DNA of 63,503 nucleotides, taken from Negaprion brevirostris (lineage: Eukaryota). The stretch spans positions 20,669,243 to 20,732,745 of the forward strand of contig JARDVH010000124.1 in the NCBI GenBank assembly GCA_030324005.1, written 5' to 3'. The notes under the pieces are model-generated. The model saw nothing but the letters and a program-made list of their open reading frames with translations, searched no databases and had not been told where the DNA came from. The position numbers were made by a program, and so were the translations under genes. The first letter of the stretch is position 1. The number at the start of each line of letters is the position of its first letter. This document shows positions 1 through 59,468 of the stretch, piece after piece.

Positions 1-215
1 CCCCTGACACTAAAGGGAAATTTAGCATGGCCAAACAAACTAACCTGCATGGAGTTTGCACATTCTTCCTGCATCTGCATGGATTTCTTCCAGGTGCTCT
101 GGTTTCCTCCTGCTGTCCAAAGATGTATGGATAAGGTAAATTAGACATGCTAAATTGCCCCTTAATGTCAGGGTTAATGTAAACCTACTTGTGACACTAA
201 TAAATAAACAAATAA
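1..215. mobile_element. Two inverted HE1/V-SINE fragments
   Basis: 1-49 is a minus-strand SINE body. 50-215 is a plus-strand V-domain plus the tail 'cctacttgtgacactaataaataaac'. Confidence 0.8.
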
Positions 216-1334: not shown

Positions 1335-1778
1335 ACCATGATTTGTCATACGAGGAGAGACTAAGTCAGTTAAAATTATACTTACTGGAGTTTGGAAGAG
1401 GGGTTCTCATAGAAACATTTAAATAACAGTGTTAGACAGGACAGATTCAGAAAGAATGTTCCCAATGATGGGAGTCCAGACTAGTGGTCATAGTTTGAAG
1501 ATAAAGGGTAAAGTTTTAGAACTGAGATGGGGAGAAATTTCTTCACCCAGAGGGTGGTGAATGTATGGAATTCACTACTACAGAATGTGGTTGAGGCCAA
1601 AATGTTGTGTGATTTCAAGAAGAAATTAGATATAGGTCTTGGGACTAAAGGGATCAAGGGATATGGCGGGAAGGGAGGGATCAGGATATTGAATTCCATG
1701 ATCAGTCATGATCAAGATAAATGGCAGAGGAAGTTTGAAGGGCCAGAAAGCCTACTCCAGCTTCTAGCTTCTATGTGG
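1335..1778 (+). mobile_element. CR1 LINE 3' fragment
   Basis: YEERL...RNFFTQRVVNVWNSL...DFKKKLD, ending in a TTCTATG tail. Confidence 0.9.
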
Positions 1779-2096
1779 TTACTACATGCTCAGTGTTCCA
1801 AGTGGATTTGTTTAAAAATAAATCTATCTTTTATGGATGGCGAAGTGGGATTGTGGTTTCCAGGGTTTAATATTTTTTAAAAAACACATCTACAGTATAT
1901 GAAAATACACAATGAACATAGTTGTATGCACCACAGGAGGCTAACAGAATTGCAAACAGTTTTTACTGCCATCTAGTGAACATTTCAGATGAAAACTTCA
2001 AACATGTATACATTCAAAATAAATTTTGCAGTATTATATTTGTCAGATGACTTTGTAGACTTCATTTAAATTGATTAGTATGATCAAGTATATGTG

Positions 2097-2402
2097 GGCA
2101 GCACAGTGGCACAGTGGTTAGCATTGCTGCCCATAGGTCCAGGGACCCGGGTTCAATTCCTGGCTTGGGTCACTGTCTGTGTGGAGTCTGCACATTCTCC
2201 ACGTGTCTGCGTGGGTTTCTTCCCGATGCTCTGGTTTCCTGCCACATTCCGAAAGACATGCAGCTTAGTTGCATTGGCAATGCTAAATTCTCCCTCAGTG
2301 TACCCGAACAGACACCAGAGTGTGGCGATGAGGAGATTTTCACAGTAACTTCATTGTAGCACTCATGTAAGCCTACTTGTGACCCCAATAAAATAAACTT
2401 AA
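2097..2402 (+). mobile_element. tRNA-derived HE1/V-SINE-type SINE
   Basis: A-box and B-box (GGTTCAATTCC), V-domain 'tgtggagtctgcacattctcc...gggtttc', tail 'cacagtaacttcattg...aataaataaactt'. Confidence 0.9.
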
Positions 2403-4229
2403 AAAATTAAACTCAAGAAAACTTAGAATTATCATCTCAAAAGTTCAAAATAGACCTGAGTAGTTGAAAAGTTATCTCTTACCAATTAACATATTGTTGA
2501 AATACCAACATTCACAATTTAATGAGTTAGGAATATTCACATGCACACAATGTGCACATTGCTAACACTGTTCATTCTAGTAGTCAAGCAAATGATTATT
2601 TATTGTAAACATAACGGAAATAAAACATAATTTTCAGTATAGTAAGCAAAACAATTATTTAACCATCCATTGCAGCAGGAAATAGTAGGGAAACAAATGA
2701 TATTGTGACAAATGAACCTTTCAGTATTTAAGATTAGATCAATTGTTCATTGCAGATGATAATTGTTATAACAGTCATGGGGTATCATCAATAGATCTTC
2801 CCATGGGCCTTGTAGAGTACAAGTGGAGGTTCACTCAATAAAGGAGGAGTAGCAGGAGTTTAAAATCAGCTGTCCCTACTCAGGCTGGCAATCAAAGGAC
2901 TCCTGGGCTTGACCTGTGCACTGTGGTTGTAGAGGTACTGCTTTATAAACTATATAAAAAGGGGGTGTTGGTGACAGACGACTGACCTCGATGAAATTAT
3001 TACATTTGACAATGAGGAGCAAAACAAATTCTTCTCTGCCCTTTGGACAAACTTCATTATCAAGACCTAATTCTCCAGTAAACAAAATACTTGTTTTTAG
3101 CAAAGTTGAAGCCTTTCTTGCAAGTCTCGAAGACTGGGCACAATACATTGAGCGCATGCATGATTACTTACTGAGCTAACAATATTGAGGGGGATGAGGA
3201 GCAGAAAATAGTCCTTTTGACAGCATGCGGGGTCTTGACACTCAGTGCAATACAAAGCGTGTCCTACCATATGTCCCTGACTCACAAACCTGTAATGAAT
3301 TGGTCGACTTGGTCAAAGGCTACTCTGACCCAAAGCCTTCTATAATACTCCAGTAAACTCCTGGGGAATCTGCCACTGAATCTCTAACTAAGTATGAAAA
3401 TTGGCAGAGCACTGAGAGTTCGGGCCAATTTGAATCTAAAGATGGTCATGCTGTATCATTGGAGAATGCAGAGATAGGAGCTCAGGTACGTCAGGGGAGT
3501 TCAGAAAGCAGTGTCTCCGATTAGGGAGAGGGGCCTCATGCAATGTCCATCCCCCAGCTGACAGCGATTGTGTTAGTAAAATATCAGAGAATCCCTTACA
3601 TCAATGGAGCACAAGTCACATTAGCAAGCAGTCAAGGAAAGGTAGGGGCAGCCTTCAGACTCCTAGGGAGCATATTTTAAAAGGTTGTAGATGCCAGATG
3701 GTGGACTGTGCAAATATTGCAAAGGACACAACCAAGACAAAAATCTAGGATAGTTAAAACCTGTGCGATCTCGAAAATGGTCAAGGTTGATGCCAGACCA
3801 GAAGTTGCAGGTATGTCCACTACCAGGAACATGGATAAGCCACATCTCCAAATGAAGGTTGCCCCCGTAATGGTGGAGTTGTTAGTAAGTGGTCACTTGG
3901 TAAAATTGAAGTGGCTATGGGGCAGCGGTCTCTGTTACCAGGGAGCAGACCTATGATCACCTCTAGATAGTTATTTAGCTCCTGAGCTAAAAAGACACAA
4001 AGCCAGACCAGTTACCTATATGGAGGAACCACTGCAGGTACAGGCACCATGGTAACCTTAGTGACTCGACTTTCACTCATCATTGTATAGGGCAACGTCC
4101 AAAGCTGATGGGGAGATATTGGCTGCAAGCACATCAGGCTGAACTTGCTGGGGATATTCAGGCTGGGTGAAGGGGGGCTGTTTGAAGTCATCAGTGAGTG
4201 CCCAAAAGCTTTGAGGAAGGACTGGGAAG

Positions 4230-5845
4230 AATAAAGGGAGCCAAAGCTAAAATCTGCGTCAACCCAATGCTACACCAAAGTACTTTAGAGTGAGACCAGT
4301 TCCATACTCCCTATTGGAAAAAGTAGTCAGAACTGGAAAACCTGGAAAAACTGGGCAGAATAAAACCCATATAATTTGCAGAATGAGCTACACCTGTTGT
4401 TCTTGTCCTTAAGCCAGATAAGTCAGTTCAACTTTGTGGAGACTATAAGCTGACGTAAATTGGGTTTCTAAACCTGACTGATACTCCATGCCCTGAATTG
4501 AAGACCTGTATGCCGAGTTAACCGTCGGCCAAACATTCTCTAATTTGGACCTGAGCCATGCATATCTCCAACTTGAATTAACTGAGCTTTCCTGGAAGTA
4601 TGCCACAATTAACATGCACAAAGGCCTATAAGAGTACACTCACCTGCCATTCGGGGTCTCGGCTGCATGCACCATTTTCCAACGGGTCATGGGTAATATA
4701 TTTCAAGGGTTACCTCAGGTAGCGATATACACAGATGATGTCCTGGTCACAGGAACTTCAGGACATGAATACTTAGCAAAACTGTGTTTCCTGGAGATTG
4801 GGATACACCTGAAGAGGGAATAATGTGTCTTCCAAGCAAGTGCCGTGACCTGTTTAGGCTATAGGATGCATAGCAAGGGTCTTCATCTGATGGAGGACAA
4901 AATAAGGGCTATTAAGAAGGTGCCAACTCCAAAGAATACCACGGAATTGAAATCCTTCCTGGAGTTACTGAATTATCACGGAAAGTTTATTCCTAATGTG
5001 GCTTCCTTATTGGTCCCTTACATACCCTACTACAGAAACATCAGAGGTAGTTTTGGGGGAGGGGTGTGGAAAGGTGCTGCAGATGGAGCATTAAACAGCA
5101 GTTCTTGTCCTCTAATTTATTGGCCCATTTTAACCCGAAAAAGGATCTTACCATGACATGTGATGCCTCCCATAAAGACGTTGTAGCAGTAGTGGCACAC
5201 TGCTGGAAAGCTGGAAGACTATTGCATCTGCAACCAGGACCCTTTCGAATGCTGAAGGAAGGTATTCCAAAAATCAAGAAAGAGGAATTGGCTGTTGTCT
5301 TCAGCATTAAAATAGTCCATCCATACGCCTACGGTAGCTGCTTCATCGTTGTAAGTAATCATAAATCCTTCTTGGTACTTCTTAAAGAAGGCAAGGCAAT
5401 ATCCCCCTATTGCCTTCACTCAGATACATCAACGGGCCTTGTTACTGGTGACTTATGGATACTTTCTGGAGCATCACCCTGGGATCTGGATAGCTAATGC
5501 TGATGCACTGAGTAGTCTGTTGTTACCCACAAGCCCGGCTTCATTACCAGCTGTGGAAGAGGTCATGATGACCCTGAATTTTTTGGACACCTTTCCGGCA
5601 TCTGCAAGGTAAGTCAAGCGTTGGATGTAAAAGGACCCAGTCCTGTCTAAATTAAAAAAGAATCATCCTCTGATTGTCCTGAGTAGTTGTCCCTCGTCCA
5701 GGGTGATGCCCAATACTTATGGAATTACACCATGGCCACCTTGAGATTTCAAAAATCTCAATTAGGAACTACATGTGGAGGCCCAGCCTCAACGCACACA
5801 TGACTAACTTGATCAGAGAGTGTGTTTCATGCCAGGTGAATCAAN
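4230..5845 (+). pseudogene. Gypsy pol remnant (RT, RNase H, start of integrase)
   Basis: Recognisable motifs occur in RT-RH-INT order across broken frames (ORFs 4845..5156, 5066..5497, 5719..). The integrase core falls in the N gap. Confidence 0.9.
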
Positions 5846-7096
5846 NNNNNNNNNNNNNNNNNNNNNNNNNNNNNNNNNNNNNNNNNNNNNNNNNNNNNNN
5901 NNNNNNNNNNNNNNNNNNNNNNNNNNNNNNNNNNNNNNNNNNNNNNNNNNNNNNNNNNNNNNNNNNNNNNNNNNNNNNNNNNNNNNNNNNNNNNNNNNNN
6001 NNNNNNNNNNNNNNNNNNNNNNNNNNNNNNNNNNNNNNNNNNNNNNNNNNNNNNNNNNNNNNNNNNNNNNNNNNNNNNNNNNNNNNNNNNNNNNNNNNNN
6101 NNNNNNNNNNNNNNNNNNNNNNNNNNNNNNNNNNNNNNNNNNNNNNNNNNNNNNNNNNNNNNNNNNNNNNNNNNNNNNNNNNNNNNNNNNNNNNNNNNNN
6201 NNNNNNNNNNNNNNNNNNNNNNNNNNNNNNNNNNNNNNNNNNNNNNNNNNNNNNNNNNNNNNNNNNNNNNNNNNNNNNNNNNNNNNNNNNNNNNNNNNNN
6301 NNNNNNNNNNNNNNNNNNNNNNCATTAATGGGGCAGACGTCGGACAAGAATAAGCCTAGTGTTTCCAAACCTGGCAGGAAGGGTGAAGTCCCAACAAGAG
6401 AACCAGAAGAAAAACCATGATTCTGCAAGGACAGAAAGAATGTACAAATCCAGTGCGCCGGTCCACATGAGGTACTTGGGAGGTGGCCTCAACCTGGTTC
6501 CTGGGATCATAAAGGAAAAAACAGGGCCAGGTCTTATGAACTAAAACTGCAGGGCAAAGTTATGAGGAGGCACCTGGATTATCTCAGGAGTAGGGAGCCC
6601 TGCCAGCGTATGTCTCATTACCAGCCACAGAGATGACTAATGCCAACACTGAGCCAAAAGCAAGCCCTACACCTGTCCCTCTGGGTGATAAGTATCCAGA
6701 TTCCGAGATGAAAGTAGAAGAGACTGCCGCCCCAGCTGACGCAGGGTCACAGGAAGAACCTGCATCAGTATCATTAAGGTGCTCCCTTAGAAAGCAAAGA
6801 TTTCCAACTTGGTTCACATTCTCATATCCAGTTTCACCATCAACTGACTGGACGTCGAGCAGCAAGCAGAGTAAAAGGCCCTCTCACAGTGGGATGTTGA
6901 GTAAGAAACAGACTTGAGGGAAGGGATCTTATGACAGCTATGGGGAATGGTCATTAGATTCCCTGTGGACCTTGTGGTTATAAACTCCCCTATTAAACAA
7001 GTGGAGACTCGCCCAATAGAAAAGGAGCAATGGGAGTTTAAATTCAGCTCTGTCTATTCGGGTTGCCAGTCAAAGGACTCCAGGTTTGACCTATGT

Positions 7097-7135
7097 TCGC
7101 TTCTCAGCCTTTTGGCTAAGATCAAGTGTAGTATC
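7097..7135 (+). pseudogene. U2 snRNA 5' fragment (nt 2-40), head of an inserted element
   Basis: TCGCTTCTCAGCCTTTTGGCTAAGATCAAGTGTAGTATC matches the recalled U2 5' end at 38/39 positions (one G>A at a CpG). It includes the branch-point recognition sequence GTAGTA. The rest of U2 is absent. Confidence 0.93.
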
Positions 7136-7409
7136 GACATGCTGTGCTTGGTTGAAGTCATTAGGTTACATTTNNNNNNNNNNNNNNNNNNNNNNNNNNN
7201 NNNNNNNNNNNNNNNNNNNNNNNNNNNNNNNCAAATGAGATCAAGCTTTGGAGGAGGAGTTATGTCTACTCCAATCAGCGTGGATCATGTAGATCAAGCC
7301 CCAGACTGGAGGTGAGAGCCGTCTTGTCAGCTTGGATCAGGAATGTCTCAACTTGTTGAGACTCTGAATTGGACTTGATTGGATTGAATTGAAACAAAAA
7401 CAAAAAAAA
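7097..7409 (+). mobile_element. U2-snRNA-headed short retroposon (SINEU-like or Keno/Tx1-derived) inserted in the Gypsy 3' LTR
   Basis: Absent from the 5' LTR, and LTR homology resumes at ~7410. It has a U2 head, a repetitive body, short TTG(A/G)A repeats and an A-rich tail AAACAAAAACAAAAAAAA. Confidence 0.75.
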
Positions 7410-8054
7410 CTGTAGCCTCAGGAGTGTGCTTTATTCACGATATAAATACAAGGCGCTGGTGACAGATTCTGGCCTCAGTGAGATTATTACAATAATCTTT
7501 AGGCTGCAGCTATTCAGTCATAGGCAGCTCTCCATACTGTAGAGTCTGGGACCTGAATCATTCACAGCATTTTGATCTTGTAATTTGCAAATTAGCCTTC
7601 CTTTCTGTCGAGTTACATCAAAAGTGCAATTTCACTGAGGATTAAAACATTTTAGGATTCAACTTTAGTAGACTTTTTCAGAAAACACCAACAGAACTGT
7701 CTGGAATACCTTCCAGAAAAAATGCCTCTGACAAAAAGTACATCATGCATTCATGAAAATTCAATGGTTCATTTCAGCAGCACTCCTTTATTGGAAGAAT
7801 TTTACAAAATTACAGCCCAAATAGTCCAGTGTCCTCAAAGTGGTTTCACTTTCAACTGCCCTCCAAGGGCAACTAGAGATGGGCAATAAATGCTGGCCAG
7901 CCAGCGACGTCCATATCCCATGAACGAACACAAACAAAGTTGCTCAGTAGGTTTAACGTTAACTTTGTCTCTCCAGAACTTAACCAAAATTTACAAATTG
8001 TCTCAAGGTTTTCTTTGAGAAATTACCTCATCAAAATAATCTGATGCAAATAAC

Positions 8055-12159: not shown

Positions 12160-12460
12160 AATGCACGATGGCAGTGGCTAGCACTGCTGCCTCACAACAC
12201 CAGGGACCCAGGTTCAATTCCCAGCTTGGGTCACTATCTGGGTAGAATTTGCACATTCTCCGTGTCTGCGTGGGTTTCCTCCCACAGTTCAAACATGTGC
12301 GAGTAGGGTGGATTGGCTATGCTAAATTGTCCCTTAATGTCAGGGGATTAGCTAGGGTAAATACATGGAGTTACGGGGATAGAGTCTGGATGGGATTGTT
12401 GTCGGTGCAGACACGATGGGCTGAATGGCCTCCTTCCTTACTGTGGGGTTCTATGATTCT
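12160..12460 (+). mobile_element. HE1 SINE
   Basis: B-box GGTTCAATTCC, V-domain and a CR1-like tail ending TTCTATGATTCTA. Confidence 0.9.

Positions 12461-16005: not shown

Positions 16006-59468
<43,463 letters not shown>

Follow-up and report, generated by a model that had tools for sequence, protein, structure and literature searches.

The window analyzed here, a 63,503-nt stretch of shark DNA, contains a decayed LTR retrotransposon that was later entered by a second, much shorter element of approximately 310 nt (positions 7097 to 7409); both are on the forward strand. The 5' LTR (2764 to 3004, bordered by ATAAT at 2759 to 2763) is empty at the insertion site, whereas the 3' LTR (6927 to 7491, with a purine tract at 6916 to 6926 and ATAAT at 7492 to 7496) is interrupted. 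Between them lies a decayed internal region (3005 to 6926) with reverse transcriptase (RT) and RNase H pieces, broken frames and 478 N. The LTRs are identical at 184 of 238 aligned columns (77%), and ATAAT borders both. Homology between them breaks off at approximately 7095 and picks up again at approximately 7410. Because the block is missing from the 5' LTR, the short element inserted after the LTR retrotransposon, as an earlier note on this DNA had proposed. That note labelled the host element Gypsy, a label that the RT-RNase H order of the predicted pieces would fit. Numerous copies of a common tRNA-type SINE-like repeat are also found in the window (1 to 200, 2095 to 2395, 12163 to 12443 and 16556 to 16752, among others).

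The short element begins with a U2 snRNA head corresponding to U2 nt 2-40 (7097 to 7135), including the branch-point-pairing bases. The Rfam U2 model matches from 7096 onward (E 1e-6, 44.2 bits), which is just below the gathering score of 46 because the first 40 model positions alone align. Identity to nt 2-40 of L031, the genome's top-scoring U2 copy, is 38/39 (97.4%). Base 7096 is either U2 nt 1 or the final LTR base, making the element/LTR junction uncertain by 1-2 nt. The head is followed by a non-U2 segment (7136 to 7173) that is a degenerate inverted repeat of the head, and the two are predicted to form a long, G-U-rich hairpin (7106 to 7167). Next is a stretch of 58 N (7174 to 7231); in sister copies its place is taken by 55 nt that contain a second U2-like segment (U2 nt 4-27). 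In the 3' body (7232 to 7391), two hairpin modules that are related to each other precede a terminal hairpin at 7345 to 7362. An A-rich tail (7392 to 7409) ends the element; AATAAA opens the tail in most sister copies and is altered in the window copy. Sister copies read U2 1-40, mirror segment, second U2 segment, two related hairpin modules, terminal hairpin, AATAAA and A tail. The element is non-coding. These data bear out the earlier description of a block of approximately 310 bp with a U2 start, an A-rich end at 7409, 58 N in its body and no clear TSD, the longest repeat flanking the window copy being 3 nt.

The head does not fit a classical Pol III SINE: U2 was the sole match in an Rfam scan of the element, and a tRNA, 5S or 7SL head was absent. 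The alignment of copies also displays oligo-T runs inside the element, a T4 in both U2 segments and a T5 near the middle, which argue against Pol III transcription.

The window copy is one member of a dispersed family. A genome search with the 3' body returned 1649 candidates, of which 40 were scored; 39 besides the window copy matched at 91-93%. Exact-motif matches genome-wide numbered 380 for the head/body junction, 952 for the body and 824 for the U2 head, with 0 for all controls. When calibrated on sampled loci (8/29, 13/31 and 6/29), these counts give estimates of approximately 1,380 (junction), 2,270 (body) and 3,450 (U2 head) copies, and the family numbers about 2,000 copies (range 1,400-3,500). 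Since the body- and junction-based estimates disagree, a considerable share of the copies may lack the head or have a single one. At least part of the first U2 segment is nevertheless present in 27 of 29 loci chosen by body alone; the two exceptions begin at the second U2 segment (L010) and just past the head (L027). Thirty exact U2-head matches were sampled, and 26 belonged to this element, 3 to LINE 5' ends and 1 to a sister family. The head/body join falls at U2 nt 40, the same base across sampled copies, and together with the heads on 27 of 29 loci this indicates master-derived copies instead of one-off chimeras. The earlier note had suggested a dispersed snRNA-headed SINE family outside U2 loci, and had taken a single copy, or body copies without the U2 head, as grounds for abandoning the idea. 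The junction and body matches, the copy estimate and the heads on body-chosen copies all favor the family.

Among 53 near-full copies, the median distance from the column majority is 5.6%, and their tree is star-like; it includes three older copies and one small group, subfamily B. Element 5' ends concentrate at the first U2 bases, next to unrelated flanks. Exact flanking repeats of at least 7 nt were found in 10 of 46 evaluable copies (60 examined), compared with 1.2% of 2070 mismatched pairs, although one of the ten (L030) is a U2/U2 match and not a TSD. The earlier note proposed a count of U2-headed copies with TSDs at unrelated loci; most copies have unrelated flanks, and TSD-like repeats occur in this minority. 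Neighboring copies beside 100-N gaps (L004, L005, L023 and L069) are possible assembly duplications and were excluded from the tandem count. At least half of the sampled element words occur in 11 public runs from 5 studies, representing 3 coded organisms (possibly including the source) and unlabelled samples. No RNA run is listed among those that carry the element, and 9 runs with shares below one half were set aside.

A second, older family is colinear with U2 and resembles SINEU-3 (L186-L205; G000:C1:78888888 and others). It is approximately 215 nt long and had 2564 candidates, with 40 scored at 80-85% besides the query. Its layout is head, inserted hairpin, stem, Sm-site-like stretch, 3' stems and A tail. 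Rfam scores it as U2 at 72.9 bits, and its 3' half aligns with U2 41-191 (0/300 shuffles as good). The last ~105 nt of the element's 3' body are homologous to this family (score 71 vs 19.6 ± 3.4; 0/300 shuffles), and via this alignment the terminal hairpin maps onto a U2 stem. Aligned directly to U2 nt 41-191, the element body gave no significant match (24-294 of 300 shuffles as good). A U2 origin of the element's 3' hairpin would therefore be transitive only, through the older sister family.

Other U2 copies were encountered in the genome. L036-L038 (G000:C157:37354999-37356174) form an intact tandem array of a variant U2 in 492-bp near-identical units, 84% identical to L031. Dispersed full U2 retrocopies (L039-L046, L049, L050, L056 and L058) have a common end approximately 37 nt beyond the mature 3' end and no A tail; several have flanking repeats by eye, and they are possibly retroposed pre-U2 or a third family. 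L032, L033 and L034 are U2 genes approximately 81% like the host's with an additional base ahead of the branch-point stretch. Two of these are on short contigs, and all three are possibly from a parasite or contaminant.

The mirror segment behind the head was analyzed by folding. The first 77 nt of the window copy are predicted to form a 25-pair hairpin covering U2 nt 11-39 (z -3.88; 2/200 shuffles as good). The fold predicted for the 3' part of that copy is no more stable than those of its shuffles (z -0.81). In fold predictions the branch-point bases are locally paired (P>0.5) in 33 of 40 copies vs 1/100 shuffles, after the 13 of 53 copies without the searched motif were dropped. Departures from a perfect inverted repeat include 9/18 pair-keeping vs 0/11 pair-breaking transitions (Fisher p 0.005), in a test that is partly circular, its register having been taken from the fold. 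Covariation in the named pairs was not above shuffles (212/500), as is expected of copies decaying after insertion; a single compensatory pair was seen, in 4 rows of subfamily B. RNAalifold returned almost no structure on the copy alignment because the latter has partial rows. The G-U-rich hairpin is predicted to hide the branch-point-pairing bases.

A LINE family of this genome shares the element's insertion site in U2. Its ORF1 has a zinc knuckle and RNA-binding domains of the ZCCHC3 type; the family also encodes an RT and a zf-RVT domain, and an EEP endonuclease is present in its relatives. The closest named relative of its RT is from Mobula (76%), by which the host appears to be a cartilaginous fish. 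None of the relatives matched by the RT search is named Keno or Tx1; we take the LINE to be of Tx1 type from its architecture and its target. The family is dispersed (149 matches among 2486 candidates), and its inter-copy identity of 80-91% overlaps the element's 87-93%. Its 5' ends bear U2 heads of differing length (U2 1-41, 10-35, 1-44, 1-52 and stacked). At L150/L151 (G000:C1:8703182), at least four U2 fragments are stacked at a LINE 5' end. L166 (G000:C1:70956936) packs U2 1-52, parts of ORF1 and, past a small gap, the 3' UTR into approximately 1.25 kb, and is possibly an internally deleted non-autonomous form of the LINE.

An A run directly precedes the U2 3' part at six places: two element, two LINE, one behind a gap and one U2 pseudogene. 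Insertion before U2 nt 39 is exact for the element at L145 and for the LINE at L149, imperfect for the element at L030, and accompanied by a small deletion for the LINE at L092. The flank at which L145 and L149 resume is the Keno 3' target in the accessible text of PMC6136364, and that of PMC4640811 numbers the same U2 junction nt 39. On contig L092 the order is element 3' end, 5'-truncated LINE, U2 43-186, spacer, U2 1-39 and another element head. At L030, U2 43-188 follows the element, and a complete 5S rRNA copy (L030:2102-2221; 70.3 bits) is fused directly to the element's U2 head. The A run also occurs before the element's own nt 39 at two places, a LINE end nested in a head (L211) and a subfamily B copy (L215). 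Of 29 loci chosen by the LINE, 5 also contain the element, which at two of them lies no more than 13 nt from the LINE tail; approximately 0.1 would be expected by arithmetic estimate. Direct LINE/element joins are also found at non-U2 loci. From the element side a LINE neighbor is rare, with 1 locus (L179) among 87 scanned, some of them duplicated; 5 matches to a query piece that probably holds other repeats were set aside. L179 (G000:C1:106755363) has element pieces inverted head-to-head beside a LINE 3' end. The occurrence of the element and the LINE at one fixed U2 base suggests that the element likely rides the LINE.

Most insertions lie elsewhere. U2-site insertions account for 2 of 71 element 3' flanks, and L030 was the sole match to the pattern of a subfamily A tail plus the U2 3' part. 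For L145 and L030, retrocopying of a read-through RNA and insertion into a U2 pseudogene would each account for the arrangement. Dispersed sites display no U2-like target preference (mean likeness to U2 nt 39-52 of 5.8 vs 5.5 in controls), and none of the 19 LINE 3' ends sampled at 17 loci runs on into U2 nt 39. Comparison of 71 3' flanks and 79 5' flanks gave no target repeat in common, apart from further copies of the element, LINE ends, U2 and a single repeat that occurred 3 times. The earlier note linked the element to Tx1/Keno; the common insertion site at U2 nt 38/39 supports the link, but a shared 3' tail was not found. The body does not share a tail with the LINE 3' UTR (48/300 and 195/300 shuffles as good), nor does the subfamily B tail (30/300). 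The name "Keno-derived" given in that note was not upheld either, as the body has no significant alignment to the LINE 5' UTR piece (one 5' and one 3' UTR copy compared).

Seven junctions between U2-array spacer and U2 start were found. Three are intact and belong to the 492-bp tandem array, two lead into the element and two are LINE-disrupted. The array units with the element are diverged and lie on a 2.2-kb contig. In L183, a dispersed full copy, the head is preceded by 43 nt of array spacer; the alignment, which takes in 9 letters of U2, matches at 44 of 52 positions. At L209, a second kind of U2 upstream DNA is followed by U2 1-40, approximately 12 weakly body-like letters and a LINE ORF2 piece. 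The earlier note had proposed looking for a master copy with PSE/DSE upstream; some copies do follow U2 upstream DNA, but none of the array junctions found belongs to a master that is complete, intact and equipped with a promoter, and the two kinds of upstream DNA gave no definable common PSE/DSE motif. Of 53 copies, 36 have within their second U2 segment a motif that we presume to be the octamer, but a shuffled 3.2-kb locus yields one in 68/200, making it a lead only. Copies behind U2-array upstream DNA and the spacer at L183 suggest that element RNA would likely be made from a U2 promoter.

We consider it probable that the block in the window is a copy of a dispersed, master-derived family of U2-headed retroposons, likely copied in trans by the Tx1/Keno-like LINE and likely transcribed from U2 promoters inside U2 genes. 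It is hypothesized that U2-like DNA is cut at nt 38/39 by the endonuclease of the LINE, which would be less specific at other sites, and that the LINE machinery copies the element in trans. An element landing at nt 38/39 would keep U2 nt 1-38 upstream, so that the external U2 promoter would give RNA from U2 +1 without an internal promoter. Because the element's head re-creates the target, nested copies and stacked heads would result. The post-head segment is predicted to pair with the head and cover the branch-point-pairing bases, which would keep the RNA from functioning as U2. The full version of this model is more tentative, and we place it somewhat short of an even chance: a promoter-less, U2-built retroposon would home to U2 base 38/39, be transcribed there by the snRNA promoter, regrow heads via its re-created target, and silence the spliceosomal end with an antisense arm under RNA-level selection.

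Family and LINE partner could also be as described, but with source copies whose RNA arises by read-through of host promoters or introns unrelated to U2, and with the U2-array copies as dead ends. Only 2 of 79 5' ends are array-linked (identified by targeted searches), flanks are mostly unrelated and an intact master was not seen; in its accessible text, PMC4494074 suggests flank-driven transcription for SINEU-2. Read-through would predict varied 5' extensions, yet the 5' ends cluster at the first U2 bases and the sole extension traced is the U2-array spacer of L183, so we regard this as unlikely. Copying mostly by a different L1/Tx1 family, with the Keno-like LINE behind the rare U2-site insertions only, would accommodate the lack of a common tail and the location of nearly all copies outside U2-like sites. 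It appears improbable given that the Keno-like LINE is itself dispersed, has an overlapping range of divergence and is directly joined to the element at non-U2 loci.

If a headless body RNA repeatedly gained its head by template switching to U2 RNA, the family would be a sum of independent chimeras. The LINE heads of differing length indicate that recurrent head addition does occur in this genome, and body matches outnumber junction matches (952 vs 380). In sampled copies, however, the element's join is at one base, the next segment mirrors the head, and the head persists on nearly all body-chosen copies, rendering this very improbable. Descent of the element from the Keno-like LINE by internal deletion, as a non-autonomous form, is hardly credible. 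U2 heads and the insertion site are common to both, and the subfamily B tail is loosely like the LINE's final bases, but there is no significant match to the LINE UTR pieces and the 3' part aligns with the U2-colinear family instead. The preferred reading remains that of a U2-headed family carried by the LINE.

The closest known systems are SINEU-1, -2 and -3 of crocodilians, described with a Tx1-Mar partner (Kojima 2015, PMC4494074); the accessible part of a review (PMC5381603) gives SINEU for crocodilians only. We found no report of a shark snRNA-headed SINE in the literature searched, which was mostly open-access. Within that literature, a U2-headed SINE in a shark would be new, with a mechanism like that of SINEU and a different target. 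Kojima left the transcription of snRNA-headed SINEs as a question, a puzzle since U1/U2 promoters lie upstream of the RNA (PMC4494074). That question becomes testable with copies that begin at the U2 start, downstream of U2 upstream DNA, and whose base-exact target is also that of a LINE. If the homing and promoter reading is true, it would explain SINEU-type transcription and imply that such elements arose independently a second time, in sharks, where at least two families succeeded each other. The element family also constitutes a young, orientation-defined marker set for shark phylogeny.

With SINEU, as far as the available descriptions go, the element shares a U2-derived head, a length under 500 bp, an A tail, the absence of a LINE with a shared tail, tandem copies, stacked snRNA segments (as in SINEU-1) and a Tx1-type partner whose 5' end can bear an snRNA head. 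Its master-derived copies, internal oligo-T and target common with a Tx1-type LINE also agree with the characters of SINEU; the likeness to SINEU-3, colinearity with U2, belongs to the older sister family. A preference of the Mariner-N4_AMi type was absent from the 3' and 5' flanks, and the element is thus classed as SINEU-like and set apart by description from SINEU-1, -2 and -3. Keno is described as a U2-specific member of the Tx1 clade (PMC6136364, PMC4640811, PMC4494074). The companion LINE resembles it in its ORF1 domains, RT and zf-RVT and in ending before the Keno 3' target in U2 arrays (PMC6136364), but lies mostly outside U2, and the element itself is non-coding and not LINE-derived. 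Utopia has an identical junction at U2 nt 39 and a weakened specificity in its crocodilian families, yet is described with a restriction-like endonuclease (PMC4640811), whereas the LINE here is of the EEP/RT/zf-RVT type, judged from its relatives. In contrast to SINEU as described in crocodilians, where the target is Mariner-N4, the element occupies a cartilaginous-fish-like genome and targets U2 nt 38/39 and its own head; it has copies behind U2 upstream DNA, and its mirror segment is predicted to mask the head.
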